This document shows, one piece after another, positions 25,834 to 53,751 of a DNA stretch of 64,000 nt. Under the pieces are notes generated by a model that was not told the DNA's origin, did no database searches, and worked only from the letters and a program-made list of their open reading frames with translations. This stretch comes from Pseudomonadota bacterium. Its GTDB lineage: Bacteria; Pseudomonadota; Alphaproteobacteria; Rhodobacterales; Rhodobacteraceae. A program made the translations under genes and the position numbers. Positions within the stretch are counted from its first letter, which is position 1; each line of letters starts with the position of its first letter. The stretch is from assembly GCA_038525015.1 (NCBI GenBank), contig JBCBID010000016.1, forward strand, positions 23,389-87,388. The letters are read 5' to 3'.

Positions 25834-25877
25834 ATCGCCTTCCCCATGTGTATCGGAGCATTGCGTGCACAGGGAAA

Positions 25878-26800: not shown

Positions 26801-26883
26801 GCAGGACAACAAATAGCGACCAAGGACAGAATAGCGCACCCAAACGCTAAAGGAGTAGATGGTCTCTAATTCAGGGGGATCGC

Positions 26884-27400: not shown

Positions 27401-27408
27401 AGGCATGT

Positions 27409-28900: not shown

Positions 28901-29257
28901 GATCCGTTGAGCCCGTTCAGAGCCCCCTTGCCTGCATCTGAACGGGCGTTACCAAGCGCACCACCCCGGCGGAAAATCAAATACAGCAGCCTGTAAAGCA
29001 TCAAAGCCCATCAATTGGATCGCGCGTTGGCGGGTCGCAGTGCGCGGACAAGTCACTTAGCTCTATACCCTGAATCGTCGTGACTTTGGTTTTCCTGCTA
29101 GCGCACTCATAGCTGCCACCGTCGGTCAATGTAGGCGCCACAGCATTGCTTTTGAGTCTCAAAAACGCAGTAAAACTTTGCAAGTTTGACCAATGGCATC
29201 CACAAGATCGGTCTTGTCAGCATTGAACCTGTGCAGACACTGAGTAGTCTGAACTGC

Positions 29258-31258
29258 ATGATGAACGAACGCGCCTCTGACTTGTATGTGCCGTCATTTG
29301 TTTCGGTCAACTACGCAGGACTGAACAAAGGTGACGCGGAATACACTGTGTCAAATGAGGCAAGCGGCCGACATTTTTCGGCGAACGGACCGACCGTGGA
29401 ATTTATAGAAGCCATTCGGTCTTTGGGGTCACTTCAGCACGCTGCGGCGCAGTCACGGATGCCGACAGAGGCTGCGCAAGCACTTTTAGTACAGCTTATG
29501 CGGTTCGGTGTGGTCGTTCAGCGCGGCCAAACAAATCAAGAGACCACCAAGGCGAAAGCCCCATTTGAAGCCCGCGCCGTTATGATCCGGTTCGACCTGA
29601 TTGACGCCACCCCTGTCGTGAAACACTTTGCCGGGGTTGGTCGGGTGCTGTTTTCGCGCTTCGGCCTTGCACTTTGGATCAGTCAGGCGATCCTTAGCCT
29701 CTCGGCATTGCTGTTGAACCAGGACAAGGTGGCGCTGGCGCTATCGCGTGTCCCAGATACGGGCTTCAGCGGTGTTTTGGCATTTGCAGTCCTGCTGATC
29801 CTGCTCAAAGCGCTGCACGAAATGGGCCACGCCCTGGCGTATCAAGAGATGTGTCGCCGGGCGGCTATCGCACCGGGCCCGATCCGCATGGGCATCTCGA
29901 TATTCGCACTTACCCCTTTTCCCTTTACCGATGTCACCGGTGCATGGCGGCTCAGAAGCCGTAAGGCGCGCGCCATTATTGGTGCGGGTGGGTTATATCT
30001 CGAGTTCTTTTTGATCTTCGTTGCCACACTTTTCTGGACCATGACCGGCGATGGCTGGTTGCAGACAGCCATCTTTCACGTGGTCATGTTCTCGGCCCTC
30101 ACAAGCCTGATCTTCAACCTCAATCCGGCGGTCAAGCTGGATGGGTACTACATCTTGTCGGATCTGCTCGCCTTTCCCAATCTTGCCGGTCGGGCCTCTC
30201 AGAGCGCCCAGGCTTGGTTGGGAAGGCAGCTTGGTGCGGACATGCCAACACCCAGTCCGGGCCTTCTTGCGTACTGGGTCATAAGTTATCTTTACCGCTG
30301 GGTGATTTTCGCCGGAATATTCTGGCTGGCTTATCAGCTTGATCCTCGCCTTGCGGCCCCGGTCTTTGGTATCGTCATCTTAATGCTCGTCATTCGTCCA
30401 CTCCTGCGCAGCGTGCAGCACGCCATTAAACGCTCGGCCCGTCCTAGGCGGCTGGTGTCAGCGGGCGTCTTATTGGTCGTCTTGGTTATTGCGGGACTTG
30501 TTCCATTCACTGATCGGGTCTTGTTGAACGGCTACCTGAACCGTTTTGAAACCACATTTATCCGCGTGCCGGAACCTGCGCGTCTGTTGATCACAGAAAC
30601 AGACCTGCCACAACTACACAGCCCGGAACTGGCGCACGAGCAAACAGATCTCGGCCTGCAGCGTGAGATCATTCAGAACGCCAATCGCGCCGTTGCTCAA
30701 TCGCAGTCGGGGGTTGAGCGCGCGCGGCTTGAAACGGACCTCGCGCAGATCGCCGAAATGCAAGAAAACCTCGCCGTGCGTGCACGGACGCTGACAATAG
30801 CGGCGCAAATCAGTGACATTTGGACCCCGCTCCACGCCGACAGCTACGCCGGTTCATGGGTCAAACCAGGTCAAGAAATCTTGGGCGCGCTCTCAACACC
30901 TGTCACCCCGCATCTTGTCCTCTGGATGGATCAAGCCGATTTCGAGGTGGGCCTGCTGGCAGACGAAAATCGACTTCTTAAGGTGCGAATGAGCCATGAC
31001 CCCGCTTGCGAATTTAATGCAACACTTGACCGCACCGAAGAAGACGTTCTTCTGCGACAAGGCGCGATACAGATGCTTGCCGCCTTGCCAGACCCGCGTC
31101 CTCCGTGTCTTGATGAGGTTCCAAGCGGCGCAGCGGTGGTGGCCCGACATCCTGCAAGGCCGAAATCCATGATGGAGCGCGGCTGGAGAACAATGCAACG
31201 GGCCCTTCAGGACCGCCTTCCGGTGGAACTCCTGTTGGAGAATGAACAAAGGAATTGA
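29258..31258 (+). CDS. M50 (site-2) metallopeptidase membrane protein with N-terminal soluble domain and C-terminal adaptor-like domain
   Basis: LHEMGH (HEXXH), FNLNPAVKLDGYYILSD, TDVTGAWRL, several TMs, then hairpin-like region and GSWVKPGQEIL. Confidence 0.85.
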   Translation: MMNERASDLYVPSFVSVNYAGLNKGDAEYTVSNEASGRHFSANGPTVEFIEAIRSLGSLQHAAAQSRMPTEAAQALLVQLMRFGVVVQRGQTNQETTKAKAPFEARAVMIRFDLIDATPVVKHFAGVGRVLFSRFGLALWISQAILSLSALLLNQDKVALALSRVPDTGFSGVLAFAVLLILLKALHEMGHALAYQEMCRRAAIAPGPIRMGISIFALTPFPFTDVTGAWRLRSRKARAIIGAGGLYLEFFLIFVATLFWTMTGDGWLQTAIFHVVMFSALTSLIFNLNPAVKLDGYYILSDLLAFPNLAGRASQSAQAWLGRQLGADMPTPSPGLLAYWVISYLYRWVIFAGIFWLAYQLDPRLAAPVFGIVILMLVIRPLLRSVQHAIKRSARPRRLVSAGVLLVVLVIAGLVPFTDRVLLNGYLNRFETTFIRVPEPARLLITETDLPQLHSPELAHEQTDLGLQREIIQNANRAVAQSQSGVERARLETDLAQIAEMQENLAVRARTLTIAAQISDIWTPLHADSYAGSWVKPGQEILGALSTPVTPHLVLWMDQADFEVGLLADENRLLKVRMSHDPACEFNATLDRTEEDVLLRQGAIQMLAALPDPRPPCLDEVPSGAAVVARHPARPKSMMERGWRTMQRALQDRLPVELLLENEQRN

Positions 31259-31265
31259 GGGCGGA

Positions 31266-32027
31266 ATGGCGAGACGACGCGCAGTTGACAAAAATCAGAC
31301 GGTGGATGTGAAAGGGCGCCTGCCGCTGCTATACAAATCTCTCGCGCCCCTGACCCATGAGCAGCACAGCGATTTGATGGTGAAAGACGCACGCAACTTT
31401 GACTTTGCGCGTCATGCCAATGCAATCCCGCTGTCTTGTGACGAATTTGGTCAGGCAATGCGAGACTACCCTATCGTATTCACCGGAGCCAGCCAGCCTA
31501 CCCCGCTTGCACTCGTTGGTTTGACAAATGGCGTAAACGACCAAACCAATAAAGACGGAGCATGGGCCGAAGGGGCGTATGTACCTGCCTACCTGAGGCG
31601 GTACCCGTTCCTTTTGGTCAAAGAGAACACAGAAACAGACCGCCAAATCCTCTGCGCGGATATGTCCTCGGTCCTTTTCACATCGAAGGCCGATGGTGGT
31701 AGCGCCCTATTCACCGAAACAGGGGAAATGACAGAGCGGCTGTCCGATATTCTGGAATTTGCCAAGCGTTACGATGCGGCCATGCGACGGACCGAGGATG
31801 TGATGGAAGAGGTCACCAGGCTTGACCTGATGCAAGCATCCACCGTCAGCCTTCGGAAGGAAGGCAAGACTGCCAAAATCGAAGGGTTTTCAGTCATTGC
31901 CGAGGAGCGCGTGCGAGAGTTAGACGATGCGACGCTCGCAGACTTGGCCAGGCGTGGCTTGCTTGGCCTTTTCACAGCACATCAATTGTCATTGTCTAAT
32001 TTTTCAATGATGGGTGCGCTCAAGTGA
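31266..32027 (+). CDS. SapC family protein
   Basis: LLYKSLAPL..EQH, AIPL..DEF......YPIVF, ALVGL..G.N, YVPAYLRRYPF, GLLGLFTAHQLSLSNF. Confidence 0.85.
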   Translation: MARRRAVDKNQTVDVKGRLPLLYKSLAPLTHEQHSDLMVKDARNFDFARHANAIPLSCDEFGQAMRDYPIVFTGASQPTPLALVGLTNGVNDQTNKDGAWAEGAYVPAYLRRYPFLLVKENTETDRQILCADMSSVLFTSKADGGSALFTETGEMTERLSDILEFAKRYDAAMRRTEDVMEEVTRLDLMQASTVSLRKEGKTAKIEGFSVIAEERVRELDDATLADLARRGLLGLFTAHQLSLSNFSMMGALK

Positions 32028-32827
32028 AACGCATTCAGAGGTTCACCGCCTTATGTGCATTGATGTGTCTTTTGCCGGCCGCAACTCTCGCGCAAAGTCT
32101 GACGGCCATCCTTGAACCCGCTGACTTGGTCGAAGTCAGATCGACTGTCGCCGGCATTCTGACAGTGATTGCGGTCACCGAAGGGCAGACAGTGGAAAGG
32201 GGCGCATTGCTGGCGCAAATTGATGATCGCAGCCAAGCCGAGAGGGTGGCCCTTGCCCAAGCAGTTGCCGGCGCCGACGGGCGCATCCAACGTGCCGATG
32301 CTCAGATTGCCCAGGCGGAATCGCTGGTCGCTCGGATGGAAAAGGCGCGCGGCCGCGGGGCGGCACAAGAGTGGGAGGTTGAGCAGGCACAGCAAGCGCT
32401 GGCGCTCGCTGTGGCAGACAAGCAAATCGCTCTGGATGGGCAAGCGCAAGCACAGGCACAATTGAAGCTCGAAAAGGCCGTTCTCGAGACTTACAGGCTA
32501 CGTGCCCCCTTTTCGGGGATCGTTCTTGAGGTCAAACAGAACATCGGTGCCAATGTCGATATGCAAACGGTGGTCATGACTGTCGCCCAACTCGAGGCTT
32601 TGGAGGCAACAGCCTTCATCCCATTGACATGGCTGAATATTATTTCGCAGGGCGATGCGCTTCGCGCCAGTTTCGATGACCAGACCAAACGACCCGTCGA
32701 TGTCGTCGTGACATCGATTGACCCAAGGATTGATCCCGCAAGTCAAACCGTGCGCATTCGCGTCTCGCTCGACAATGCCGAGGGCATGCATCGCCCCGGC
32801 GCTACCCTTGTGCTTCAGGCACCATGA
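32024..32827 (+). CDS. Periplasmic adaptor (membrane fusion protein) with cleavable signal peptide
   Basis: GTG overlapping sapC stop; VTEGQTVERGALLAQID, coiled hairpin, LRAPFSGIV, IDPRIDPASQTVRIR, HRPG. Confidence 0.88.
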   Translation: MKRIQRFTALCALMCLLPAATLAQSLTAILEPADLVEVRSTVAGILTVIAVTEGQTVERGALLAQIDDRSQAERVALAQAVAGADGRIQRADAQIAQAESLVARMEKARGRGAAQEWEVEQAQQALALAVADKQIALDGQAQAQAQLKLEKAVLETYRLRAPFSGIVLEVKQNIGANVDMQTVVMTVAQLEALEATAFIPLTWLNIISQGDALRASFDDQTKRPVDVVVTSIDPRIDPASQTVRIRVSLDNAEGMHRPGATLVLQAP

Positions 32828-34437
32828 ACGACGTGTCCAACGAGCCAAAGCGTCAGTCGCTTGGCGATGCGTTGCAGTCGCTCTTTTCAAGCGCTGTTGC
32901 AACACCATTTCCCAAACGCCTGATCACATTCACACAAGCGCTTATTCCCGGTGCGCGAACTTGGGTGCTGGCCCCAACATCGGACGACACTTGGCTATCC
33001 TGGCCAGACGGACCGATGCCGGATCACATTGAGCCATTAGCCACAAAGTCGCTCAAGGATACAGACCAATGCGTACAAGCGGATGGCCGCTGCCTTGGGG
33101 TTCCAATCTGCCTGGAAACCGGCGCCAGTGCAGCACTTGTCGTTGAATTGCAACAAGGAGGACAAGCCGCGCTCGCACTTGCCTTTGAACGGCTGAGCTT
33201 GCTGTCACAACTTACATTTGCCCGCCACAGGCCCGACGCTGTGGTTCAATTGCAAAGGGTTCTCTCTTTACTGCCGCAATTGAACAAACGGTCACCCGAA
33301 CCTGTGCAAGAGCTTGCCGATGCTCTGGCACAGTTCATGTCCGCGGACTATGCTGCGGTTGCAAGGTTTGATGACTCTAGAATATCGGACCTGCACATCT
33401 CCGGCCAGGTATCGGGCAAGCGCAACGCAATCCTACCTGCCACCTTGCGCGACACGCTAGCCGAAACGGCGCGTCTGAGGCTTTGCACATCTCATCGCGC
33501 TTTTTCGGGCGGCGCAAACCAAAGCAATGGCATCGTCTTCCATCTCGAAAACCCGTCACGCAATAAAGACATATTGCCACTGATCGCTGCAGCAGCGGAC
33601 AAGATGGCCCCATCCGAGGCATATCAACGCGTCAGGTGGAAACGCCTCGGGCGGCGTGCCGCAATGCTCTTGGTCGTGATCGGATTGTCCTTTATCCCAA
33701 TCCCAGACGGGGTCGACCTGTCAGCCACGGTTGCAGCCATCTCCCAGCGGGTGATCACCAGCCCACTGGACGCACCCATCCAGCACATTAACGTGCGCGA
33801 GGGGGACAGCGTGATTGCAGGCGAAACCATCCTTGCTCAATTCGATACGCGCGAGATCGACCTCGAACTCATCGCCGCGCAGGCATCGTATACCAAAGCG
33901 CTGCTTGATCGTGAGCGCGCACGTGCCAGCCGCCTGGCCGCCGATCTGCGTACCGCCGAGATTGAGGCTGACCGTCTTTCAGCCGATATCGAACTTCTAC
34001 AGGCTCGCAAGGAAATGGCACAATTGATTGCCCCGATCACCGGCATTGTCCTTGGCGAGGGTCTTGCCGATCTAAAGGGGACGATCCTGCGCCGTGGTGA
34101 CCAGTTGCTAGAGATTGCCAACCCCACCTCGCTTGAACTTGATATCTCTGTCCCGCAGTCGCAAATCGCTCGGGTCAGCGTCGGCGCCAATGGGGTCTTT
34201 CGACCCGACTTCGACCCCTCCCTACGCTTGGATGCCACGCTCGCAGTGATCTCACCCGCCGCCTCCAGCGCCGAACGCAACCCACTCTACCCGGCCAAGG
34301 CCAAATTCGCGGCTGACACTGCAAGACTGAAACCGGGCATGACCGGGGTTGTTGCGGTCAATCGGACTTGGCGCCCAACGTGGCAAGTGGTCTGGCGCGA
34401 ATTGAGAAACTGGGTCCTGCTGCGTCTCTGGGTCTAG
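32824..34437 (+). CDS. HlyD-type adaptor with large N-terminal cytoplasmic (GAF-like) region
   Basis: About 275 aa soluble N-terminus, TM RRAAMLLVVIGLSFIPIP, then VREGDSV, LIAPITGIV, LKPGMTG. Confidence 0.8.
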   Translation: MNDVSNEPKRQSLGDALQSLFSSAVATPFPKRLITFTQALIPGARTWVLAPTSDDTWLSWPDGPMPDHIEPLATKSLKDTDQCVQADGRCLGVPICLETGASAALVVELQQGGQAALALAFERLSLLSQLTFARHRPDAVVQLQRVLSLLPQLNKRSPEPVQELADALAQFMSADYAAVARFDDSRISDLHISGQVSGKRNAILPATLRDTLAETARLRLCTSHRAFSGGANQSNGIVFHLENPSRNKDILPLIAAAADKMAPSEAYQRVRWKRLGRRAAMLLVVIGLSFIPIPDGVDLSATVAAISQRVITSPLDAPIQHINVREGDSVIAGETILAQFDTREIDLELIAAQASYTKALLDRERARASRLAADLRTAEIEADRLSADIELLQARKEMAQLIAPITGIVLGEGLADLKGTILRRGDQLLEIANPTSLELDISVPQSQIARVSVGANGVFRPDFDPSLRLDATLAVISPAASSAERNPLYPAKAKFAADTARLKPGMTGVVAVNRTWRPTWQVVWRELRNWVLLRLWV

Positions 34438-37400
34438 TACGCGCTGCCCGGCGTCGCCGTTGCGCCTGTCAGAAATTCGTAGTTGAACCTATTCAGGCTG
34501 TCGCCCAGAGGATTGAGCGACGCTTCATACAGGCTTTGTACGGTCAGACCGGCAACATTCTCGAATACTTCATCCACCCGGAGCGTGTCGCCGACTGAGA
34601 ATGCCTGCTGGTTAAAGGCAGAAGCATAGAATGTGCGCGCGTTGAACGCTCCGTTATCCTGAGGCAGTGTCGACGGCCGGTCGACGGATATAGAGACATA
34701 GTAGCTTTCGGTGTTCAGGTCAGTACCCACCTCCGCAAAGCGTACCTCGCCAAGCGAGGCGCTTTCCTGGATTGGCTGTCGATCCAACAATTCAACGGGC
34801 AAATCAAAGACCTCGCTGCCCTTAAATTCGGAGAAGAAGTCGTCATATACAGTTTCAACCGATGATGTCGGGAAGATCGCGATCCAATGCCCTCCGGCAT
34901 CGGCCAGGACATGTCTGATACCCGTCAACTGCCCCTGCTCACCGAAAAGACGGATCGTCACGTTTGAGCCCGGCTCCGCGGTACCGGAATAGATCGGATC
35001 AATCGCAAGAACTGGCAGGAACTGGGCATCGTCAATTCCAAGGGTCGGAAAGAAGTCTCCTTCCTCTTCATCGCCGGGGATGGGCTGTGCGATGATGAAC
35101 GCGTCGTCTTGTGTCGTTGTCTCCCGATTGAACGGGTTCGTTGGGTCAGGGCTCGACGTGCCGGTTACAGAAGCAACGTTGGTCACACCGGTCAATACGT
35201 CAGTCTGGAAGCCGACAAAGACGTCATACGTGATCGTCACGCTCTCACCCGGCAAAAGGCGCGGGATCGAGATTGTCAGCACCGTTTCTCCAGCGGCAGA
35301 GCCCGAGGTTACGGTAGCCAGTGCCGGGTCGCTTACAACGGTCCCTCCGGTCACGGACAATTGGAAAGGCAAAGCATCGGTCACAACCGCGTTGTAGATA
35401 GGCGCAGTGGCGGTGGCGGCATTTGTGACAACGACCGTATAAGTAATTGTGTCGCCGACCAGCGGATCAAGGTCATTCACCGTCTTGTCGATACTCAATT
35501 CCGGCTCAACAACCTCGATTGTGGCCGTGTCTTGCTGCGTGTCGAGTGGCGCTTCACCCTGTGGCGTCACTGTGAGAGCACCGGTATTGGTCAGCGTCGC
35601 ACCGGCAAAGGCTGCCGGATCATCTGTCACCACAGACACGACCTCGACACGGATTTCGTCATCCTGACCTATGCTGCCGTCAAATGGGTTTGAAATGGAA
35701 CCCAGATCAATTGTGACGAAGCCACCCACCTCGGAAATGATCGGTGCACCCGCGACGATACCTGTACCAACCGATGTCACGCTGGCCGATACAAAAGCCA
35801 ATCCCGGCGGCAACGCATCGGTCAGCACGACACTGTCCATGTCAATCTCAGGTAGCGTGAGGACCAGTTCATAAGTGACCTGTTCGCCAATAGTCAGGTC
35901 AAGAAGGGCCGGATCAAACGCATCAGTCCCGGTATCGGGGTTCTCGCCGTCGATTGCGGTCTTGCTCAGGGCCGGTATCGTCGCGACGCCGTGGTCATCC
36001 ATCTCTGTCAGCGTGCGCCCGGTTGGTGTCTCGGGATCGCCGTCGGGCACGGTATCAAACAGGATCGATGCGGTGTTGAGCGTCGTGCTCGCCGGGTCGA
36101 CCGAGATGCCCAATATCGCTTCGTAAGACACAGTGGCTTCCTGACCGGGCAGCAATTCAGGCAAGAGCAAACTAAAGCCGGTTGTCTCATCCACGGTCAC
36201 CGCCTGCGTCACACCGTCGATGACGACGCTCACAGACCCGGACACAAGCGTCAGGTTGGAATCGGTCAGCGTATCGATGACCTGAATGTCGTATGCCGGT
36301 CCAGACCCTGTGTTTTCAAAGGTCAGTGTGTAAGGGACCACATCGCCGGGATTGGCGGCAAGCGGACCCGACTTCTCAAAATCAATCTCCGGCTCCACGA
36401 CTTCTACTGTGGCACTTGCATTCACGGGGTCAAACGCTGCCGCGCCTGCAGGATCCACATTGAGTTCAGCGGCATTTGTCAGCGCCACGCCCGCCGTATT
36501 TGCGGGATCGTCAGCGACCACCGCGGTCACCTCAACCGTGATCCGATCATCGGTGCCGATGTCGCCGTTTGGCGCATTGTTGACAGAGCCAAAGTCAAAA
36601 AGGATGTCCTGCCCGACATTGCTGATCGTCGGTGTGTCAGCACCGGTCAGATTGGCACCGGTCGACACCAGATTGGCAGACACAAAGGTCAACCCATCAG
36701 GCAGCGTGTCTGTCAGAACCACGCTGTCCAACAGAATTTCAGGCAGGAAAATATCAAGCGTATAGGTCACTTCTTCGCCAATCGACAGATCGAACGTGTC
36801 GGCGTCGAATTGCTCCGCGCCCGTCGCGGCCTGACTGGTGAACGCGGTGTTCTTGAACAAGAAGGGGACGGTGGCGACGGAATGATCATCTTCATCTGTG
36901 CCGGTGCGCGCACCCGGCGTCGCAGGGTCACCATCGGGAACAGTGTCGAATTCGATCGTAGCTGTGTTCGGGAAGCTTTCGGCATTGGGCGCGCCCGGCA
37001 GCAGATCGACATCATAGGTGATCAACAGAGTCTCACCCGGCTGCAAGGCATCCACGAGTGTTTCAAATCCGGTACCGTTGGGCGTAATCGTCAACGATCC
37101 CAAAACATCCGACCCGTTGATCGTAGCGCCGGTCACGGCGTTCAGAACAAGATTTGGATCGCCCAAGACATCCGTCACAACGATGTCAAAGGCTGGACCA
37201 GTTCCTGAATTGACCACTTCAATCGTGTAGGTCACCGTATCGCCTGGATCGGCAGCAATTTCGCCGTCTTTCTCAATCGACAGGTCAGGCTCTACAACCT
37301 CGACATCCGCCGTATCGGTCTGCGTCTCCAGCGGGGCCTCACCCTCGGGTGTGATTGTCAGTGTTGAGGTGTTGGTCAACAACGCGCCGTCGGCCGCCGC

Positions 37401-43400: not shown

Positions 43401-46400
43401 CTCGACGCTGGCCAGAACAGTCGCCTCATAGGTGATAGTTAGCGTGTCATTGACGCCCAGTTCATCAGCGGTGATCTCGATATCTGTGTCGCCGGTGCCG
43501 TTGCCATTGACGATGGACACCCCGGTTCCGCCGACCACGTTCACAGACCCGGCAACCAGCACCACATTTGGATCAAGAAGATCAGTCAGTTCCAAGTCAA
43601 AGGCCGGAGCATCACGCGATGCAATCGGGTTGTCGACGACGATCTGATACGACACCGTCTCTCCGGCCTGCACGATGTTTGGGCTTGCGGACTTGTCGAT
43701 GGTCAGTTGCGGCTCGATCAAGTTCACGCCATTGGAAGCAGCAGACGATACGCCGTCAGCCTGAAAACGCCCCGTATTGGCCAGCCGGTCGCCAGCGCCC
43801 TCATCCTGACTGCCCAGCGATCTGGCCGTGACCTCAAAGGTGATGACGTCGTCGGAGACGTCGTTATTCCCGAGATTTACCAGCGTCCCAAGATCGAAAC
43901 TTACGCTGTTGCCGTCCGCAGCGACTGCGCCTGCGCTTCCAAGGGTGATACCGTTAGACGAAGTCAGGACAGATGTATCCCAACCTGTGATCTCAGCAGA
44001 TAGTATCTCGAAATCACCAAATGCGCCCCCAGATCGCACCGTGTCTGACAGCACAGCGTTCTCATAGGTCGCTTCCTGCAGATCAATTTCCACCTCAAAG
44101 GTGAATTCTTCACCGACCAAAACCTCAGAGTTACCCTGAACACCAAACTCGCGATCAACCAATCGCTTGGAAACCTGCACATCCTCTACAGATGCAGACG
44201 CGTCATCAGTCAGATCGGGTGTCGCGCGGTTGATGGCAGTGTTTGAGGGCGTACTCTCAAAGGCGGCAAAATTGGCAACCGTTGCTGTGTTTTCAATAAC
44301 GTCGTTCGAAGTAACGCTCTGCGCTGCCTCAAGATCGTACGTGATCACAACGAGGTTGTCGCCCGCAGTAGGGTCGAAGGCCGACAACGCGCCTTCGCTG
44401 CCGCGATCATCCAGAAGAATACCGCCGGAAAACAGATCGCCCGTAAAGCCGATGACCCGGCTGCCGGTCCCGTCCGTGACCGTCAGGTTCAGCCCGGACG
44501 CAGGTATGACAAAACCGGGCGGTAGCGTATCTTCAATCTGCACATCAAATGCGCCATTCGGGGCTTGTCCGGTGTTCTCGACCACGATGGCAAAACTGAC
44601 AATGTCGCCCGCATCAATGTTCTCAACATTGGCATCGACCGGCGTTGTCCCAAGCGAATCTGAACTGATTGTATCCGAAAACCGCGCTCCGGCGCTGCCT
44701 GGGGCAGAAAACGACACCGGCCCGACAGGATCAGTAAACGACGTAGACGGGTCAACACTGTCTGTCGCGATCACACCTTTCGTGATCTCCAGATCGGGCT
44801 GCGAGAATATGAAATTCGCGATGGCGGTCGTATCAACACTGCTTGAGGTCGAATTGCTTTCAAACGCCGTGGCCTGGTTGGTCAACAAAAGACCGTCTTC
44901 AAACACCGCATCAATAACGGTGGTCGTAAACAGGATTTCAATCTGCACTTCACCGCGCGGATCGCTTGTGAACGTCCCAAAGTCAAAGTCGATCTGGTTG
45001 TCCGCAGGCACATTTGAAAGGGCAGGAATGCCGCCACCCGCATCGATATAGGCCTGAGAGGCCAGCCCGAACTGCGCCTCTCCGGGTGCGGGCGGCCCCG
45101 CGCTCACCACGTTGTTGAAAACCGTCAACTCTGCGGCATCAAACACGTTCTGAGGCAGGTTGTCGGTTATATTCAGCTGTTCGAATGCCCCAAGCGGCGC
45201 GTTGTAAATAATGCTGAATGTAACCTGGTCACCCGCTGCAATCGGCACATCGGGATCAGGGGCCACGCCGTTCAAAAAGGCAACGCTCTTGCTCTCGATA
45301 AAACCAAAAGGCGTCTGAATACCGGCACCGGTCTCATCGCTCTCAGTGCCTAGAACCGTCGTGGGGGTGTCGTTGTCGCGCACCGTCGCGGTGATCTGAG
45401 CATTGTTTTGCAACAGATCGCCCTGATTAAACGCAATGTCCCCCACGTCGCCATCATCGACAAATTCATCCAGAACGCGCGCGAAATAGCTGATCGTCGC
45501 AGTGGTGCTTTGCAAATTGACGGTGCCGTCCGCATCGTCACCAGTCAAAAACGCGTCCTGCCCCGCATCCAGCAACGCTTGCGAGATGTCCCAAACCACC
45601 GTGGTCTCGCCAGTAGCGGTGTCAAAGGATGTGCTTTCGTTCGGCGTTAACACCTCAGATGTCAGCGACCCGCCATTGGACTCCACCGTTGTCAACGTGG
45701 GCGTAAATCCCGGGGCATTCAGGTACTCCCACCCATTGCCCAATATGTCGGTGATCACCAGATCGCCGTAAGTAAAATAGTCGGATACCTGGATGTCCAA
45801 GGTGAACTCGTAGACATCGCCGGGGCTGACCACGCCGGGCAGATCGGTATCTTCGAAAACAGCCACACCCTTTTGAACCGCCAGCGACACGGCCTCGATC
45901 TCGTTGAGCGCGGAATCCGAAACGCTTTGTGTGGCGTCATCCTCATCCAACGGGTCCCACGTTCCCGATCCTTGCACGCCATTTTGAACAGGTGCCGGGT
46001 CGCCGCTTGAGTCATTCAGCGTCGGATCAGTCTCATTCGCAGCAAACTCATCGATGAAATAGTCGAAGGTGACAACCGCCGTCCCTGTGATCGAAGCAAA
46101 GGTGAGATCCAACAGGTCGTTGCCGGGCCCGGCGATCTGTCCCGCTGTTGGCTCGACATTCACGTCAGCTGCGGGCGAAACACTCAGGTTGCCTAGATAA
46201 ACAATCTCCGGTGGCAGATTGTCGACCAGATTAAAGTCGGTCAGTGTCTGACCAGGGGCGACGTCCACCAAAATTTGATAAGTGTAGACATAGCTCGGAC
46301 CCGTCGCTGCTTCGTTTTCCGCCAGCACCCCACCTCCAGACAACGTCTGTTTCTGGATGTCGAAAAGCGTCTGACCCACCGTTGTGGTCCCAAATGCACT

Positions 46401-46940
46401 GACGGTGGACGGATCAGTTTGCGGATTGTTCAACGGGTCGCCACCAAAAGCGAACCCGCCGCGGGTCTGAATAACAAACTCCTCGTCCAAATCTGCTTGA
46501 TCAGAGAAATCAAGCGTCATCACAACATCCACGGGCGGGTTACCCGCCGAGAATGAACCAAAAGGCAGTTCAAACACCAACAGCGTGTCGCCAGGTGTTC
46601 CGGTCACCACCAGCGGATCACCAAAGCTGTCAAGCGCAATCGGATGCAACGCTTCTCCGGCGGCATCAAAGACGATCTCGGTCGTGACGACGCTGCCACC
46701 CAAAAAGGTTGCGCCATCAAAGGTGACACCGTCATCCCCGTCAGGCCCAAGCGTAGGCAGGATCACATCAATGAACGGCACAAAGCCGGTGTCCGTCGGA
46801 TCGACGTTATCAAACGTCAGGGTGAACTCTACGTCCTGCGCGCCAATCTCGACATCCGCAGGCGCGTCAACAGTAACCTGCGCCTCGCCATCCAGAACAA
46901 TCCGATCCTCAAGCAGCTCGAACTTTGGCAACACAGTCAT
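34434..46940 (-). CDS. Giant (4168 aa) acidic surface protein with ~24 isopeptide-forming/DUF11-like Ig domains
   Basis: Uninterrupted ORF; alternating repeats K...IGE.VTY.L...LPE...TD.LP.GL...N.A and EP.L.I.K...GD.V.Y...N.G.GPA.D...N.A; N-terminal LEDRIVLD motif; no Sec signal. Confidence 0.92.
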   Translation of the reverse strand: MTVLPKFELLEDRIVLDGEAQVTVDAPADVEIGAQDVEFTLTFDNVDPTDTGFVPFIDVILPTLGPDGDDGVTFDGATFLGGSVVTTEIVFDAAGEALHPIALDSFGDPLVVTGTPGDTLLVFELPFGSFSAGNPPVDVVMTLDFSDQADLDEEFVIQTRGGFAFGGDPLNNPQTDPSTVSAFGTTTVGQTLFDIQKQTLSGGGVLAENEAATGPSYVYTYQILVDVAPGQTLTDFNLVDNLPPEIVYLGNLSVSPAADVNVEPTAGQIAGPGNDLLDLTFASITGTAVVTFDYFIDEFAANETDPTLNDSSGDPAPVQNGVQGSGTWDPLDEDDATQSVSDSALNEIEAVSLAVQKGVAVFEDTDLPGVVSPGDVYEFTLDIQVSDYFTYGDLVITDILGNGWEYLNAPGFTPTLTTVESNGGSLTSEVLTPNESTSFDTATGETTVVWDISQALLDAGQDAFLTGDDADGTVNLQSTTATISYFARVLDEFVDDGDVGDIAFNQGDLLQNNAQITATVRDNDTPTTVLGTESDETGAGIQTPFGFIESKSVAFLNGVAPDPDVPIAAGDQVTFSIIYNAPLGAFEQLNITDNLPQNVFDAAELTVFNNVVSAGPPAPGEAQFGLASQAYIDAGGGIPALSNVPADNQIDFDFGTFTSDPRGEVQIEILFTTTVIDAVFEDGLLLTNQATAFESNSTSSSVDTTAIANFIFSQPDLEITKGVIATDSVDPSTSFTDPVGPVSFSAPGSAGARFSDTISSDSLGTTPVDANVENIDAGDIVSFAIVVENTGQAPNGAFDVQIEDTLPPGFVIPASGLNLTVTDGTGSRVIGFTGDLFSGGILLDDRGSEGALSAFDPTAGDNLVVITYDLEAAQSVTSNDVIENTATVANFAAFESTPSNTAINRATPDLTDDASASVEDVQVSKRLVDREFGVQGNSEVLVGEEFTFEVEIDLQEATYENAVLSDTVRSGGAFGDFEILSAEITGWDTSVLTSSNGITLGSAGAVAADGNSVSFDLGTLVNLGNNDVSDDVITFEVTARSLGSQDEGAGDRLANTGRFQADGVSSAASNGVNLIEPQLTIDKSASPNIVQAGETVSYQIVVDNPIASRDAPAFDLELTDLLDPNVVLVAGSVNVVGGTGVSIVNGNGTGDTDIEITADELGVNDTLTITYEATVLASVESGIIIDNTANVTFDSLPTDDADDERDFSISDDAEVATAAASIDKSITDTSNADTDGGDLSIGETVTYDITIVLPEGTNSNATLVDTLPTTPGTLTLVSSEVISIGDNITGSLLAAGAAGTVVGDDVVFEFGTLSNVNDLVQNGDDEIVVRIVAQLNDLPDNMSGDTLVNTARFITDNTDVSDTAVVEVVEPVLGIDKVADVSEADAGDTVTYTITSSNSGNGPAYDIVLDDGVVDPSIVAGTPPVASIRILDGATDVTPSLGADAPSVTFPTGTGGLQAIVPVLLPGQTIEVVFETVVVDAVAFDSTFSNEATITRFDTDPAGDTTDPDDGRVFTGPSDSVEIDTPPPGIEKTLVGTDDPNTLGADVGVSETLTYEIELTLPEGTSDILVVDDLPEGLTPISAVITTMDASITSDNLAQGDSDISSGFISVGSDGGFEFDFGTVTNPGDNLAANDAIVLTVTAQVADVVTVSDGVTLTNEATISLIDPLSGAVLIDPDTGAPQSFSDDASANVVEPELDIDKTVLPTTADAGDTVAYTILSQNIGSGPAYDVVLNDPLSDAGLTIPTPAVGSIRILDGGADVTPIGTDAPVLVYPTGAGGLQATIPVLLPGQTIEIAFEAVVADAVTFSTDVVNTAEVTRFDTDPAGDGTDGDDGRVFDDTLAGYVVPEDGAVVTTPDATLAKVVVATSDSDTTGTDVGIGETVTYELTITVPEGTADLVLSDALPSGLTAISAEVISLGSGGNITTDNINAGDTDASGSIVLTSSSVSFDFGTVQLAATDDAAAVDETIVVRVVAQVDDIASNADGATLENDASLDVNDPTTGAPLQPDPTASAVVEIVEPDLTIDKSGPIAANPGDVVPYVVTITNTGTGPAHDVFFEDLLSDPELALTGTPSFEIDSTTITPAVTLVGDGFSALIGSLQPGETLTVTYDAVLATTAPEAQSFPNIALIEYDTVPDGDPDTPGARSFTDQDDHAVATVPVVSKEATGSSLTPTGSGEFDGTDFDLVVGEEVTYTLTLVLPEVSMDSVVLQDTLPDGLAFVSAGFVSQGGQVSGADDVVINNSGAVTTFDFGTVDNTADGALNTDDQVIVELTAVVVDVAAAIDGASLINTSTLDVIAAGGIVLDQASDTAAVDIVEPELAFEKSGSEAADAGDQISYQIEIENTGTGPAFDIFVADTLSDPNISLTSGSVVATLNGTATALTVDETGDGFSFTFGQLLPNDILVVTYDADVAAGFAAGDIIENTATAEFDTVPDGDPSSPDGRTDTVEDDHVVGAGPLLTKTTVDSGNTDTGDGAFTSGVPDLVVGETVTFALTVTLPEISIDGATLVDTLPDGLSFVSASVDSVGVGLVGADAPAISGAGQTVTIEFGAIENPFDGSLGADDEVVVLVTALVEDIATNADGAVLTNSATLTLTPEGQAPLDPVTATTDVEIVEPDLEITKDGSIAVNPGDDVDYTLSITNSGTGPAYDILVEDELDNTFLSFNSGSLIASIDGTDITGSLSLVETATGFEVIIPALQPGETLEIGYSALLDASAPEAQSFPNLASISFDTVPDGDPNSPTGRGDSDDDDFSVATVPFIVKSPIATDFGDTTSDQGDADLFDLTVGETVTYRYEVFLPEIAMDSVVLTDVLGPELELIAVDVVSFGAGISAANTDPIVTSVDPQNFSIDFGAVNNPADGTIGPDDVIVLEVQARVLDVPTAASGQVVDNTVTVNVDPAGPAGPLAPATDTAQVEIVDPNLTLDKAGPLAVNPGETATYTLTLNNTGDGPAYDVLIEDQLADGNLSLVSGSVSLSLDGMPVSITPSETGTGFDVLVPVILPGQTLVVTYDALLSDTAPAAESFGNTATASFDTVPDGDPDSPTGRSDVITDEFEIATIPVLEKLAVDTGEASTGTGQGDGAIFDLSVGETVTYQLTLTLPEIDLSAIEITDTLPPGLSFVSASVDSVGADIALASPAIINNSGATTTISLGASTSLGDGTINTEDQVVIEIVAVVADVAAAADGALLTNTSTLTITPEGEAPLETQTDTADVEVVEPDLSIEKDGEIAADPGDTVTYTIEVVNSGTGPAFDIVVTDVLGDPNLVLNAVTGATINGSDVLGSLTITPNGTGFETLVDALQPGETLLITYDVDLLPGAPNAESFPNTATIEFDTVPDGDPATPGARTGTDEDDHSVATVPFLFKNTAFTSQAATGAEQFDADTFDLSIGEEVTYTLDIFLPEILLDSVVLTDTLPDGLTFVSANLVSTGANLTGADTPTISNVGQDILFDFGSVNNAPNGDIGTDDRITVEVTAVVADDPANTAGVALTNAAELNVDPAGAAAFDPVNASATVEVVEPEIDFEKSGPLAANPGDVVPYTLTFENTGSGPAYDIQVIDTLTDSNLTLVSGSVSVVIDGVTQAVTVDETTGFSLLLPELLPGQEATVSYEAILGISVDPASTTLNTASILFDTVPDGDPETPTGRTLTEMDDHGVATIPALSKTAIDGENPDTGTDAFDPALLDLTIGEQVTYELVLTLPEIDMDSVVLTDALPPGLAFVSASVTSVGTGIVAGAPIISEVGGFVTIDLGSISNPFDGSIGQDDEIRVEVVSVVTDDPAAFAGATLTNTGALTVTPQGEAPLDTQQDTATIEVVEPELSIDKTVNDLDPLVGDTITYTVVVTNAATATAPIYNAVVTDALPFQLSVTGGTVVSDPALATVTSGSAAGETVLTISIPRLLPGESVTITYDVFVGFQTDVLTGVTNVASVTGTSSPDPTNPFNRETTTQDDAFIIAQPIPGDEEEGDFFPTLGIDDAQFLPVLAIDPIYSGTAEPGSNVTIRLFGEQGQLTGIRHVLADAGGHWIAIFPTSSVETVYDDFFSEFKGSEVFDLPVELLDRQPIQESASLGEVRFAEVGTDLNTESYYVSISVDRPSTLPQDNGAFNARTFYASAFNQQAFSVGDTLRVDEVFENVAGLTVQSLYEASLNPLGDSLNRFNYEFLTGATATPGSAY

Positions 46941-46993
46941 TTATCTACCCTATCACATATCACGCTCTTACAGGTCGCCTTGGATCCTCCGAC

Positions 46994-48961
46994 CTAATTA
47001 CTGCGTCCAGCGCGTCGCAACTTATACGTCTTCTCGCCTCGAATTTCTTCCGTCAGGTTCATCGACAGCCCCCAACGGTTCAACAAAAGCCCGCGCGCCC
47101 GGGCCAGATTGGCCGCAGACACCTCGCGCGTCGCGCGCGCCTGTGCTACCGCCTGCTCGGTCGTCTGAAGGTTCTGATAGCTAGACAGCAGCGCCGACAG
47201 GAATTCGATCCCTTGGTCGCCCACACCTTCATTCCAGCGCGCCTGAATAGCATTCGTGTCAGCCTGTGCAGCCTGCAGCGCGCGCCGTTGCGCGATCAGG
47301 TCATTGCAGGCCACGATGTATTCATTCGCTGCAACATCCACTTCCAGCAGGACGGTCGCAATGGTCGACAACACCTGACGCTCCTGCTGAACCGTCTCGA
47401 TCCGCCGGCGATGATAACGCGCATCCCGCTCATCAAAACCTAGGGGAACCGAAAATTTCAAGCCAACAAGCGACCCGGAATTGCCCGACTGATTGTCAAA
47501 CGAGTCACTCAGGCTGCGCCCCGCTGCGCCGCCCTGCGACCGCGCCTCAAGCACCAGGTCAAGCTCAGGCAAACTCTCATTCGCAGCTTGCCCCTCCCGC
47601 AGAAGGGCAGCCTCGTATTGCAAAATGGCCTGTTGCAACTCGGGCCGGTTCAAAAAGATGGCCTCGATTGTGTCTTCGGCCGACAGCAGCGCCAGCGCCC
47701 CATTCGGCGACGATGTCGGCAGCACCTCCACCGCAGCTGGCCCAAGCCGCTTGTCATTCACCAAAGCGGCCAGGCGGAACTCCGCATTTTCCAAAGCGGC
47801 CTTGGCCCGCACGGTGTCAGCGCGCCACTGTGCGGCCAGCGACCGCGCGCGATTTACCAGCACCGGATCCGCGTCAATACCAACGCGGTTGTCGATCTGG
47901 TTGGCGATCTGAGCACCGTGCCCCGCCAGATGCTGACGCTGCACAAACACAGCGCGCGCAACATATAGGTTCCAATAGGCACGTTCGACTTCAAGCAAAT
48001 GCGCCGACGCCTGGCGATGGAACTCCTCTACAGCAATTTGCGTATCCATGTTGGCGATGCGGCGCGGAATGTCGTTGTAGGTGACACCTCCTCCGCGCAA
48101 GAGCGGCTGAACATAGGTCAGCGCGGTCTCGGAGGTGGATTGCTTGCCCGGAATGAACGACGTGTCGTTTGTATCGATTGTGGTAAAGCGCTGCGACAAC
48201 GATATCTCGCCACCCGTCTTCAAGCGGCTCCGCACCCCGAACTCGACATCCGTTTCATCGCGGATCAGCCGCTCAGACCCGCCCGCATCGGCTGGGCTCG
48301 TTGCAAATTCATTTGTGCGCTCAGCGCTTGCATCCGCAAAAATCTCAGGGACAAAGCGTCCCTTGGCTTCTTGAATCGCTGTCCCGCGGATCGCGGGCAA
48401 GTCCCCAAACGCGGCAATTTGATACGAGTTCTGAACGGTTGAATAGACCGTGTCGGGCAAAGAAATCGCGCGGCCACGTTCACCGGGCAAAAGATCACCT
48501 CGATGCGCGCGGCCCACCCACCACTCGCCAGCGGTGGACGGGGCGGTCGAACGCGCCGCACTGCGCACGCGCGTCAGCGATGTCCCAAGGCCACGTTCCT
48601 TGGCCTCGATAAACGCATGCCGTCCAAGAGCGCGCCGAATGTAGATGGCCCGGTCCGCCGTGTTGCGAAACGCTTTATAAGTGATCGTGTCGACGGGCCA
48701 GTTTTCGTTGCTCAGGTCCGCGCTGGACAGGTTGAACTCACCATTGCCCTCCGCTTCAGGGTTTCCGAAGCGATCAACTCGCTGCCGCGACTGCTCGCCC
48801 GATAGCCGTTCGCCTTGCTGATTGGCTTCTATTTCTTCACCCACAGACGGGCTGAAACCGCGCTCGCGCGGAAGATCACTTGCTCCCGGCGTGATAGGTC
48901 CTTCGGCGCAACCAGCCAAAACGAAGCCTAGCGCTACCGCGCCGAGTTTGATCTGTCCCAT
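46994..48961 (-). CDS. TolC-family outer membrane channel, lipoprotein with N-terminal extension
   Basis: MGQIKLGAVALGFVLAGC lipobox after GGGGA RBS; YVQPLLRGGG, LLEVERAYWNL, RPELQQA, ESLPELDL, GLKFSVPLG, two helical/barrel repeats. Confidence 0.88.
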   Translation of the reverse strand: MGQIKLGAVALGFVLAGCAEGPITPGASDLPRERGFSPSVGEEIEANQQGERLSGEQSRQRVDRFGNPEAEGNGEFNLSSADLSNENWPVDTITYKAFRNTADRAIYIRRALGRHAFIEAKERGLGTSLTRVRSAARSTAPSTAGEWWVGRAHRGDLLPGERGRAISLPDTVYSTVQNSYQIAAFGDLPAIRGTAIQEAKGRFVPEIFADASAERTNEFATSPADAGGSERLIRDETDVEFGVRSRLKTGGEISLSQRFTTIDTNDTSFIPGKQSTSETALTYVQPLLRGGGVTYNDIPRRIANMDTQIAVEEFHRQASAHLLEVERAYWNLYVARAVFVQRQHLAGHGAQIANQIDNRVGIDADPVLVNRARSLAAQWRADTVRAKAALENAEFRLAALVNDKRLGPAAVEVLPTSSPNGALALLSAEDTIEAIFLNRPELQQAILQYEAALLREGQAANESLPELDLVLEARSQGGAAGRSLSDSFDNQSGNSGSLVGLKFSVPLGFDERDARYHRRRIETVQQERQVLSTIATVLLEVDVAANEYIVACNDLIAQRRALQAAQADTNAIQARWNEGVGDQGIEFLSALLSSYQNLQTTEQAVAQARATREVSAANLARARGLLLNRWGLSMNLTEEIRGEKTYKLRRAGRSN

Positions 48962-49149
48962 ATGTCCCCCGTCGTGTTCAAACCCACGTTCTTGTTGTCG
49001 AAACTTGCCCGCAAAAACGACTCCAACGCAATCTCTGAAAGTGCAGCCGGCGTAGTTTCGCTTGATATGTGTTTTTGCTGCAAGACGCCGCAAGTATTAA
49101 AGCCAGCGCGACATTCGCACGCCGGGACTTTTTGACGCGTTTTCCCCCT

Positions 49150-49167
49150 TGACGCTGCGCAGCGTCA
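49150..49167. promoter_or_regulatory. Perfect 18-bp palindrome in the tolC/omp85 divergent spacer
   Basis: TGACGCTGCGCAGCGTCA; overlaps TTGACG (49149-49154), about 40 bp upstream of ATG 49207. Confidence 0.45.
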
Positions 49168-49206
49168 TCTGAAATCACCACGATATCTTGCCCGGGGGTA
49201 ACGCGC

Positions 49207-50508
49207 ATGACGCCAAGATTGCTGGTCTCTATCGTCGCATTTTGCGCAGCTTTGTCCGCGCCAACCTTTGCGCTGAGCGCGACCCCAAGGGTGTTCAACG
49301 AAATTATCGTTGAAGGGAACAGCCGCTTCAGTGACCGCGACATCTTGGCCACCGCCGGACTGCGGCGCGGCGAAACCTACGGGCAACAGGACCTGCTGGA
49401 AGCGATCGAAGATCTTGAATTTACAGGAGAGTTTAACGAAGTCCGCATTCGGTCAGAAGGTGATCGACTGATCATAACGGTAGATGAAACACCCCGCTTC
49501 GAGGGTCAGCTTGTGTTCGGAGGCGGTTTCGACACCGACACCGGTTTTTTTGTTGGCGGCGCATTGCAAATCGAAAATGCCCTGGGCATCGACGCCCGGA
49601 TCAATGCCGAACTGACCCTGGCAGAAGAAATCCAGACCGCCCGCTTTGCGGTATTTGATCCCGATGCTTTATCCGAGACTATCGGTCTCGGCATCCGGTT
49701 TTCGTACAGCAACACCGAATTCGACAACGTATTGTTCTCCTACGAAGACATTTCACTCAGCCCTTTCGTAACATTTGACCTTGGCCGAAATCGCGAACTT
49801 GAAACGCGCCTCGTCTTTTTCGAAACCGATTTGCGCGATGTGGACCCGTCCGCCTCTGCCATCTTGCAATCCGAAGTCGGCAGCGAAAGCTCTATCGCGC
49901 TCGGAGCAACCTACAGGTTCGGCGAGATCGACCCGTCTGCCGGGCGGTTCACTTGGGGTCTTCTGCTTGACGCGGAATACGCCTTTGCGGGTGACGCTGA
50001 TTACATTCGCGCGCAGGTTCGCGGCAACTTCTTCCTGCCTATGGCTCGCGGCTTTGCACTGCGCTCCACAGCCGAGTTTGGGCACATCTCGGGGCTTAAT
50101 GACTACGTGGTGCGCGCAACGGACCGCTTTGTGCTGGGCGGGGCCAGCTTGCGCGGGTTCGAGCGGGGCACCGTCACCGTCCGCGATATTGATGGCAATG
50201 TGGACACCAACCTGGGCGGCAACAGCTTCGCCGTGATCCGCACCGATCTCCTTGTTCCTCTGTTTCCAGAAAACGAGGATGTTGGCACATTTGTATTTGC
50301 AGATATTGGCAGCGTCTGGGACCTTGAAACTGACACCGGGGAAAGCGGGCAACTCTTCGATGGGTTTGACCTGCGCGCCTCGGTTGGCATCGGCGCATCC
50401 TATGATTTCAATTTTGGGCGGCTCGAAGCCTACCTCGCAGCACCTGTTGAAGAGGGCGTGGGCGACGACGACCAGATTTTCGGCATCGCTTTTCGAACCA
50501 ATTTCTAA
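49207..50508 (+). CDS. Omp85/BamA-TamA family protein with a single POTRA domain
   Basis: Signal peptide; EIIVEGNSRFS...LEFTGEFNEVRI...LIITVDE POTRA; FVLGGASLRGF loop-6 motif; LGGNSF; C-terminal FGIAFRTNF. Confidence 0.85.
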   Translation: MTPRLLVSIVAFCAALSAPTFALSATPRVFNEIIVEGNSRFSDRDILATAGLRRGETYGQQDLLEAIEDLEFTGEFNEVRIRSEGDRLIITVDETPRFEGQLVFGGGFDTDTGFFVGGALQIENALGIDARINAELTLAEEIQTARFAVFDPDALSETIGLGIRFSYSNTEFDNVLFSYEDISLSPFVTFDLGRNRELETRLVFFETDLRDVDPSASAILQSEVGSESSIALGATYRFGEIDPSAGRFTWGLLLDAEYAFAGDADYIRAQVRGNFFLPMARGFALRSTAEFGHISGLNDYVVRATDRFVLGGASLRGFERGTVTVRDIDGNVDTNLGGNSFAVIRTDLLVPLFPENEDVGTFVFADIGSVWDLETDTGESGQLFDGFDLRASVGIGASYDFNFGRLEAYLAAPVEEGVGDDDQIFGIAFRTNF

Positions 50509-53737: not shown

Positions 53738-53751
53738 AGTGCTCCTCCCGT

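Follow-up and report, generated by a model that had tools for sequence, protein, structure and literature searches.

How can a bacterium move a protein of 4168 residues across two membranes when the genes beside it supply a duct and adaptors and no recognisable pump? This question is raised by seven genes at 29258-50508 of the window, by which we mean the whole stretch of 64,000 nucleotides analysed here (contig JBCBID010000016.1 of assembly GCA_038525015.1, family Rhodobacteraceae). The original prediction, drawn from the DNA letters, described a type-I-like secretion locus without an ATP-binding cassette (ABC) or resistance-nodulation-division (RND) pump, built around a giant adhesin and an M50 peptidase fused to an adaptor domain (M50-adaptor). 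We favour, with modest confidence, the reading that the seven genes constitute one dedicated, type-I-like and envelope-spanning system that would export, process and display a giant CLIPPER fibre. It would represent a lineage lacking the SecA-like ATPase of its relatives, and its drive would come mainly from membrane potential together with a folding ratchet.

Relatives of the locus and their motors

Homologues of the M50-adaptor protein were collected with their surrounding genes, and the loci were sorted into three well-supported clades, termed groups A, B and C. Group A extends over Alpha-, Beta- and Gammaproteobacteria, Desulfobacterales and Planctomycetota, and its set comprises a giant RTX-type protein, SapC, a GAF-adaptor, the M50-adaptor, a SecA-like protein of 660-700 amino acids (SecA_DEAD, PPXD and P-loop) and a small adaptor. 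This group-A module has been described from genomes (Kamneva, Poudel and Ward, PLoS One 2015; PMC4452313). Group B, which includes the locus of the window, has so far been found in marine Rhodobacterales only (Thalassobacter, Litoreibacter, Limibaculum, Pikeienuella, several metagenome-assembled genomes (MAGs) and this genome). Its set consists of the M50-adaptor, SapC, a small adaptor, a GAF-like adaptor, a CLIPPER giant of 3000-4200 amino acids and a TolC-like lipoprotein, mostly with an Omp85 protein in addition. Group C (Nitrosomonadaceae, Comamonadaceae and further Rhodobacterales) combines a DUF4347-type large protein bearing an LEPR/LEER leader with a TolC-like protein, two adaptors and the M50-adaptor; its loci carry neither SapC nor a SecA-like gene (e.g. 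L008:933-11554, L032:2511-11680 and L053-L058). One genome, G249, holds one group-B and two group-C modules.

Group B is monophyletic in the M50 tree (support 100) and is not nested inside group A; B and C stand together (94) against A (94). A single gain or a single loss of the SecA-like ATPase explains its distribution over the three groups. In all three, the M50-adaptor genes adjoin giant, acidic, nearly Cys-free proteins tagged with LE[PDEQ]R, at more than 30 loci. The family counts 5,980 representative M50-adaptor clusters at E<=1e-30, and since only about 19 of these score like group B, this variant is rare. Within the window's order the M50-adaptor gene occurs in 44 of 401 genomes, and seven of the 44, this one included, belong to group B. 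One of three other genomes of the window's genus carries the locus (L062 in G321; it is missing from G243 and G357), its M50 protein being 40% and its TolC-like protein 66% identical to those of the window. This patchy presence and the difference between the two identities suggest that the locus has probably been transferred horizontally.

The distribution of SecA-type motors follows the clades. The short SecA-like gene adjoins the M50 gene in 17/17 group-A loci that are readable just downstream of M50, and in the survey of the 401 genomes, in which two SecA candidates were scored per genome, about 23 have it immediately next to M50. One group-A locus seemingly without the gene carries it on another contig, and three group-A genomes hold the housekeeping SecA plus one or two short paralogues beside M50. 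A PF07517 search of this genome gave one SecA, of 904 amino acids. Eight further group-B genomes hold one SecA each by the SecA_DEAD model, and five more from the survey have no second locus matching the short SecA-like protein at E<=1e-30, which brings the genome-wide absence of a secondary SecA-like ATPase in group B to 14 of 14 genomes. Only the housekeeping SecA was found in the seven group-C genomes tested. To look for a hidden or decayed SecA-like gene, tblastn, PF07517 and a custom hidden Markov model (HMM) were applied to the whole genome and to the 3.2 kb that lie upstream of the locus; the idea was rejected, as the housekeeping SecA alone was recovered. The custom model, built on twelve SecA-like proteins and run over all six-frame open reading frames of the genome, gave the same single result even at E<=10.

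Two group-A loci add to this picture. The SecA-like proteins at L036:11683-13635 (a Planctomycetota MAG) and L052:11682-13484 (the window's family) have neither the GEGKT Walker A motif nor the DEAD box and are probably catalytically dead, while their modules are otherwise complete group-A sets with separate origins inside group A in the M50 tree. Given the motor-less lineage B, its sister C and these two dead-motor loci, the M50-adaptor/TolC core appears as the constant part of the system and the motor as the variable one. A motor that may be dispensable or replaceable in whole lineages is the new element in this comparison.

A rival explanation is that the housekeeping SecA, recruited by a complex of the M50-adaptor and the GAF-like adaptor in place of the short paralogue, supplies the power for crossing the inner membrane. 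A SecA-type motor is the natural partner in group A, in the 17 readable loci (two copies being degenerate) as in the survey genomes; this genome's SecA and the short paralogue share 37% identity, and exactly one full-length SecA is kept in every group-B genome. The position of group B outside group A does not, however, indicate a simple recent loss followed by substitution. The two group-A copies without ATPase motifs suggest that the role of the SecA-like protein can be structural and not that of a motor, and the giant cargo has no hydrophobic signal of the kind normally handled by SecA/SecYEG. On balance we regard recruitment of SecA as somewhat unlikely, though it deserves to be taken seriously.

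The original prediction had also reported that the locus is free of ABC and RND signatures, and scans for motifs and domains confirm this. Walker A, LSGGQ and GGxGxD motifs are missing from all seven window proteins, the single GK[ST] triplet among them lying in a non-conserved beta-strand of SapC, and there are no ABC or RND genes within about 19 kb on either side. A small ABC ATPase is encoded 19 kb upstream. The ABC genes met at 13 related loci are an import-type ATPase in one MAG and, in Litoreibacter, an ABC-2 polysaccharide exporter 8 kb away, so that no ABC transporter is conserved near the window's locus or these 13. The gene of a major facilitator superfamily (MFS) transporter at 22065-23321 was considered as a pump partner and rejected, since it belongs to an ArsJ-like cluster of ArsR-phosphatase, GAPDH and MFS genes.

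Export of the giant by a conventional, unlinked ABC-type type I secretion system (T1SS), with the locus contributing only the TolC-like duct, leader processing and regulation, must be weighed against these data. The genome encodes 11 exporters of ABC_membrane type, including a complete classical T1SS on another contig, and the cargo is acidic and Cys-free as T1SS substrates are. Yet that sole classical T1SS has, besides its ABC transporter, its own OEP protein and its own BapA-type adhesin cargo; the cargo of the window has neither RTX repeats nor a C-terminal region in common with known T1SS cargo; and the three adaptor-domain proteins of the locus would become redundant next to a foreign pair of ABC transporter and membrane fusion protein (MFP). 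Group-B loci have no conserved ABC gene in their vicinity, and the ABC-less architecture recurs in three clades. This route thus seems quite unlikely to us. The large ABC_membrane proteins of the genome were likewise rejected as the motor, one being the T1SS with its own cargo and OEP and two combining ABC_membrane with a cyclic-nucleotide-binding domain. The latter two (L067 and L068; G000:C13:86579-89713 and G000:C2:214909-217968; about 1020-1044 amino acids) carry this domain at the C-terminus and have no ABC_tran match at E<=1e-4; one of them adjoins TamA/TamB genes.

Surveying M50-adaptor neighbourhoods for ABC and SecA-like ATPases, as the original prediction had proposed, therefore gave a divided answer, with a SecA-like gene beside M50 in group A, none in groups B and C, and no conserved ABC gene. 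The notion of a pump-less type-I-like exporter stands as far as comparative genomics reaches; most relatives carry a short SecA-like ATPase. With such neighbours in group A, the gene set is not simply a T1SS without its ABC transporter but part of the module described by Kamneva and co-workers in 2015. The earlier interpretation is partly supported.

The locus and its proteins

The seven genes and two segments of the cargo gene are listed below by coordinates in the window, with the strand in brackets.

29258..31258 (+): M50-adaptor fusion protein, 666 amino acids, with HEMGH and NLNPxxxLDG motifs and an adaptor C-terminus
31242..32027 (+): SapC-family protein, 261 amino acids (Pfam SapC, E 5.2e-59)
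32024..32827 (+): small periplasmic adaptor, 267 amino acids, with HlyD_D23, HlyD_3 and RND_mfp matches
32824..34437 (+): GAF-like sensor-adaptor, 537 amino acids, with HlyD_3 and HlyD_D23 matches and one transmembrane segment
34434..46940 (-): giant cargo, 4168 amino acids, with CLIPPER/DUF11 and isopeptide-type domains
46860..46925 (-): N-terminal leader motif of the cargo, an LEPR-XLL-type tag at residues 6-27, KFELLEDRIVLDGEAQ
34437..35141 (-): C-terminal module of the cargo, last 235 amino acids, IDDAQFLPVLAIDPIYSGTAEPGSNVTI ... NPLG..LNRFN.EFL
46994..48961 (-): TolC-like outer-membrane factor, a lipoprotein of 655 amino acids with OEP matches and the lipobox VLAGC
49207..50508 (+): single-POTRA Omp85-family barrel, 433 amino acids, divergent from the TolC-like gene

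The listing of open reading frames and the domain scans bear out the seven-gene anatomy of the original prediction. The four plus-strand genes overlap by 4-17 nucleotides and are translationally coupled: the M50 and SapC genes share 17 nucleotides, and the small adaptor gene is joined to both of its neighbours by overlaps of 4 nucleotides. The giant gene starts 53 nucleotides downstream of the TolC-like gene on the same strand, and its stop overlaps that of the convergent GAF-like adaptor gene in one CTAG. Since the seven-gene set is kept in 13 other genomes, with different flanking genes in each, the arrangement is not a matter of chance.

The motifs of the M50-adaptor protein, HEMGH at residues 187-191 and NLNPxxxLDG at 287-296, lie within a multi-pass membrane domain, and the protein has at least six strongly hydrophobic segments, in agreement with its earlier description as multi-transmembrane. 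H187, E188, H191, N287, P290 and D295 are invariant among 69 M50-adaptor homologues, the zinc site of the window's protein is intact, and because the catalytic residues are invariant across the family the protease is probably active. Pfam Peptidase_M50 (PF02163) matches weakly (15.8 bits against a cut-off of 27.2), and the MjS2P structure 3b4r is matched by the M50 profile only at E 0.64. The AlphaFold model, with a mean predicted local distance difference test score (pLDDT) of 92.1, is made up of a beta3-alpha3 N-domain, a helical membrane region, a beta-rich domain with an alpha-hairpin of 2 x 25 residues, and a beta-barrel. The adaptor domain occupies residues 417-636, with the short alpha-hairpin at 456-510. 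In a profile of the 69 homologues the C-terminal third matches EmrA (E 3.6e-5) and MacA, and Foldseek aligns the adaptor parts of the model with MexA, AcrA, MacA and EmrA at E values down to 3e-10. By profile and predicted fold, this third of the protein is a true periplasmic adaptor domain.

The cytoplasmic N-terminal domain (residues ~15-82) is predicted as three strands followed by three helices with pLDDT >90, an arrangement like that of PqqD and of the recognition elements (RRE) of ribosomally synthesized and post-translationally modified peptides (RiPPs). Of 20 aligned N-terminal domains, 7 were matched by the PqqD model PF05402 (best E 5e-6), every one of the 7 coming from group A, and on these matches the N-terminal domain of group-A M50 proteins is a PqqD/RRE domain. 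In the window's protein, position and predicted secondary structure point weakly to a domain of the same type. Among NCBIfam models the M50 domain best matches intramembrane proteases of RiPP pathways, daptide_HExxH (108.7 bits, E 3.5e-31) and YydH/LiaK (22.3 bits, E 9e-5), and RRE/PqqD domains are typical of RiPP pathways. One could thus see in the M50, adaptor and TolC genes a RiPP-type module for the maturation and efflux of small peptides, or for signalling, to which the adjacent giant would be related by coincidence or regulation. This seems very improbable: both matches fall far below their cut-offs (300 bits, the equivalog cut-off, and 225 bits, respectively), precursor-peptide and modification genes are not found in the locus, the leader motif is carried by the giants themselves, and adjacency to such leader-tagged giants is kept across groups A, B and C.

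The cargo contains 12 stretches of PF01345 (DUF11/CLIPPER, E 8e-82) and 18 stretches matching the isopeptide-domain model TIGR04226 (E 6e-147). By its sequence it is a fibrillar adhesin of the CLIPPER/DUF11 family (bioRxiv 10.1101/2025.04.25.650565), with tandem domains whose signatures predict isopeptide bonds. It has 0 Cys, 16.3% Asp+Glu against 1.7% Lys+Arg, and a net charge of about -608. As the original prediction stated, there is no Sec signal, no hydrophobic segment being found at the N-terminus, and no RTX repeat, with 0 GGxGxD motifs and no HemolysinCabind match; nor was a two-partner secretion (TPS) domain of the haemagglutination activity type found. Group-B giants share the conserved leader (K/R)FExLEDRI(V/L)L, and the cargo of groups A and C has LEPR, LEER or LEQR followed by hydrophobic residues at the same N-terminal place. 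The C-terminal module of 235 amino acids is 38-84% identical across all group-B cargo, while the cargo of groups A and C lacks it, as does the remainder of this genome; an anchor, a tip and an export signal are candidates for its role.

SapC, conserved in groups A and B, shows neither a signal peptide nor a hydrophobic transmembrane segment and is presumably located in the cytoplasm. Of the earlier proposal that it acts as a cytoplasmic helper, this location is the part that has gained support. Its model is confident (pLDDT 87), and neither Foldseek against the PDB (best E 0.2) nor a sequence-profile search gave a structural relative; the family appears to be without a solved one, at least by Foldseek.

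The small adaptor has a signal peptide (hydrophobic residues 12-30) and matches HlyD_D23 (E 3e-21), HlyD_3 and TIGR01730 RND_mfp, the last with 119.9 bits, above the cut-off. The 537-residue adaptor is divided into a cytoplasmic N-domain (1-270), a transmembrane segment (275-293) and a periplasmic adaptor domain (300-515). Together with the adaptor domain of the M50 protein, these HlyD matches uphold the claim of three adaptor-type domains. The adaptor part of the protein earlier called GAF-adaptor is likewise well founded, and its GAF label rests on profile homology: the Pfam GAF model does not match the window's protein directly, direct detection being limited to the Bradyrhizobium homologue, and its N-terminal 250 residues align to GAF-bearing group-A relatives (hhalign 92%, E 6e-7).

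The TolC-like protein matches Pfam OEP in 2 stretches (E 3.5e-21), and has a conserved lipobox, VLAGC, and an N-terminal extension of about 190 amino acids. It was found in 7 of 8 group-B genomes searched (45-86% identity), and in 4 of those 7 its gene lies on the M50 contig beside the giant gene. The Omp85 protein (E 1e-31) has one POTRA domain and a BamA-like barrel that scores below the BamA cut-off; the true BamA and TamA of this genome are encoded elsewhere. Its gene adjoins the TolC-like gene in 6 of 7 group-B loci with that side visible, a count that includes the window and the copy of L063, which is split between two reading frames. To pair this conserved neighbour with the giant in the manner of two-partner (type Vb) secretion, and to give the TolC and adaptor genes another purpose, is hardly credible: the cargo has neither Sec signal nor TPS domain, and the Omp85 protein, with one POTRA against the two of TpsB, is not present in the Limibaculum locus or in groups A and C.

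Both flanks are unrelated to the locus, the upstream one consisting of a phytase-like protein, the ArsR-phosphatase/GAPDH/MFS cluster and a decayed DctM fragment. On this side lie a Hint_2-domain protein (18975-20039, minus strand, E 2e-57); a fusion of an ArsR-type helix-turn-helix domain with a low-molecular-weight phosphatase, then a GAPDH paralogue and the MFS transporter (20228-23321, plus strand), resembling an ArsJ-type arsenate-resistance set; and a 769-residue phytase-like/choice-of-anchor-I protein (23677-25986, minus strand). The gene-poor 3.2 kb at 25986-29186, with short open reading frames only and a fragment of a tripartite ATP-independent periplasmic (TRAP) DctM permease at 28326-28676, probably represents decayed DNA that borders the locus. 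Directly after the Omp85 gene, 50683-56929 holds a LuxR-type response regulator and serine-cycle genes (hydroxypyruvate reductase-type dehydrogenase, malate thiokinase-like CoA ligase subunits and malyl-CoA lyase-type HpcH). The GC content is 0.54-0.58 across 20 to 50 kb of the window, against about 0.60 in the flanks. A scan for tRNA genes as island borders found none, and the two control regions, when scanned, gave neither a promoter nor a terminator, which is uninformative.

Proposed route of export

In the reading that we favour, a dedicated system for the giant fibre, the unfolded, Cys-free and polyanionic precursor would be picked out while still in the cytoplasm, by means of the LEDRIVLD leader at its N-terminus. 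The RRE-like domain of the M50-adaptor is the presumed reader of this leader, and SapC may hold the chain. Subunits of the M50-adaptor and the GAF-like adaptor may assemble in the inner membrane and let the chain pass through, and the adaptor domains, with the small soluble adaptor, would dock on the TolC-like lipoprotein to form a continuous duct; the adaptor folds and the OEP match are found, their assembly being conjectural like the other steps. The intact zinc site of the M50 domain would remove the leader, and Omp85 may help to insert the unusual TolC-like protein or anchor the fibre. As no dedicated ATPase is present in the lineage, the main drive is proposed to be membrane potential, which would pull on a chain whose net charge is about -600. 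CLIPPER domains that fold irreversibly and become locked by isopeptide bonds once outside the cell would be the ratchet. The housekeeping SecA is a possible helper.

One may speculate further that group B, and probably group C, bring chains of several thousand residues across both membranes without any dedicated ATPase. A ring of RRE-M50-adaptor subunits would then be a leader-gated passage in the inner membrane, membrane potential would drive the lysine-poor polyanion electrophoretically, isopeptide-locked folding outside the cell would rectify its movement, and group A's SecA-like protein would play an accessory part outside the core. We offer this tentatively and think it unlikely. Cargo charge provides a lead only: the overall median net charge per 100 residues is -12.9 in group B, -10.3 in group C and -8.9 in group A, and cargo is more acidic at loci without an active ATPase (Mann-Whitney p ~0.001, with kinship and habitat ignored and with group-A cargo genes that were 5'-truncated).

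Several observations weigh against the favoured reading. We know of no S2P/M50 protease that serves as a protein-conducting channel and of no TolC-dependent protein exporter that works without an ABC transporter. The RRE assignment is weak, since PF05402 does not match the window's M50 protein, and hhalign relates the N-terminal domains of groups B and A with 11% probability, albeit in the right register. The leader of the cargo is a marginal match to the LEPR-XLL model NF012209 (cut-off 17), with 17.6 bits if the scan is confined to the first 30 residues and 11.7 bits if it covers 300 amino acids. The charge trend is confounded by habitat, phylogeny and the truncated group-A genes. A missed gene is conceivable in a genome that is 95.9% complete and in 100 contigs, although 13 other genomes agree, and the 11 exporters of ABC_membrane type make an unlinked motor possible. 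In the literature library searched, no experimental work on any member of the M50-adaptor module was found; SapC/TolC genes next to giant proteins in a green sulfur epibiont are the subject of the one related experimental paper.

To our knowledge every characterised TolC-dependent system has a recognised energy-coupling partner in the inner membrane (ABC, RND or MFS). The module family has been described in print once, with its SecA-like ATPase at the centre, and here a stable giant-cargo lineage is found without it. The old question of how LEPR-XLL-tagged giants are exported becomes experimentally approachable, as Thalassobacter, Litoreibacter and Actibacterium are harmless marine carriers that can be cultured. 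Export independent of a dedicated ATPase would, if true, be a new mode of energising protein secretion; should the housekeeping SecA or an unlinked ABC transporter be used instead, an unexpected recruitment of general machinery to a TolC duct would come to light.

Comparison with known systems

[quoted passage not shown] The M50-HlyD, GAF-HlyD and small HlyD proteins of the window are homologous to those of Bradyrhizobium and other group-A members (tblastn E 1e-15 to 1e-30), and SapC, a TolC-like gene and an LEPR-tagged giant neighbour are mostly shared as well. The locus and genome of the window differ in lacking the defining short SecA_DEAD paralogue, which has no C-terminal wing/scaffold. 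The gene order (M50-SapC-MFP-GAF-MFP), the added Omp85 and the separate clade of the M50 proteins are further differences, and the cargo is a CLIPPER/isopeptide stalk and not an RTX protein. Without a secondary SecA, the locus is not a member of this module as defined.

Tripartite efflux pumps (MexAB-OprM/AcrAB-TolC, MacAB-TolC and EmrAB-TolC) share the adaptor fold, the corresponding domain of the M50 fusion superposing on MexA, AcrA, MacA and EmrA. The window, however, has no RND, ABC or MFS partner, and its presumed substrate is a protein. With RiPP leader peptidases and peptidase-containing ABC exporters the group-A relatives share an HExxH intramembrane protease following a PqqD/RRE domain, and the logic of coupling leader recognition and cleavage to export is common to both. 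The window's protein nevertheless scores far below the RiPP cut-offs, its presumed substrate is several thousand residues long, and its protease is fused to a TolC-docking adaptor instead of an ABC transporter. The locus is neither a two-partner secretion system nor a RiPP exporter. SapC-bearing systems resemble it in having a SapC-family gene beside a TolC-type gene and very large secreted or surface proteins without classical signals, whereas C. fetus has an ABC transporter (SapD) that is not present in the window's locus.

Giant adhesins are exported by T1SS composed of an ABC transporter, an HlyD-type adaptor and TolC, as in LapBCE-LapA and SiiCDF-SiiE. A TolC-family duct, adaptor folds and a giant, acidic, Cys-free and repetitive protein without Sec signal are common to these systems and the locus of the window. 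The latter departs from them in lacking an ABC transporter, RTX repeats and any recognisable C-terminal signal. Its conserved tag sits at the N-terminus, and its adaptor-domain proteins are of three different kinds, of which one is a fusion with a metalloprotease. As defined, the locus is thus not a T1SS; its gene content suggests that it works most like one, and it belongs to the wider M50-adaptor family.

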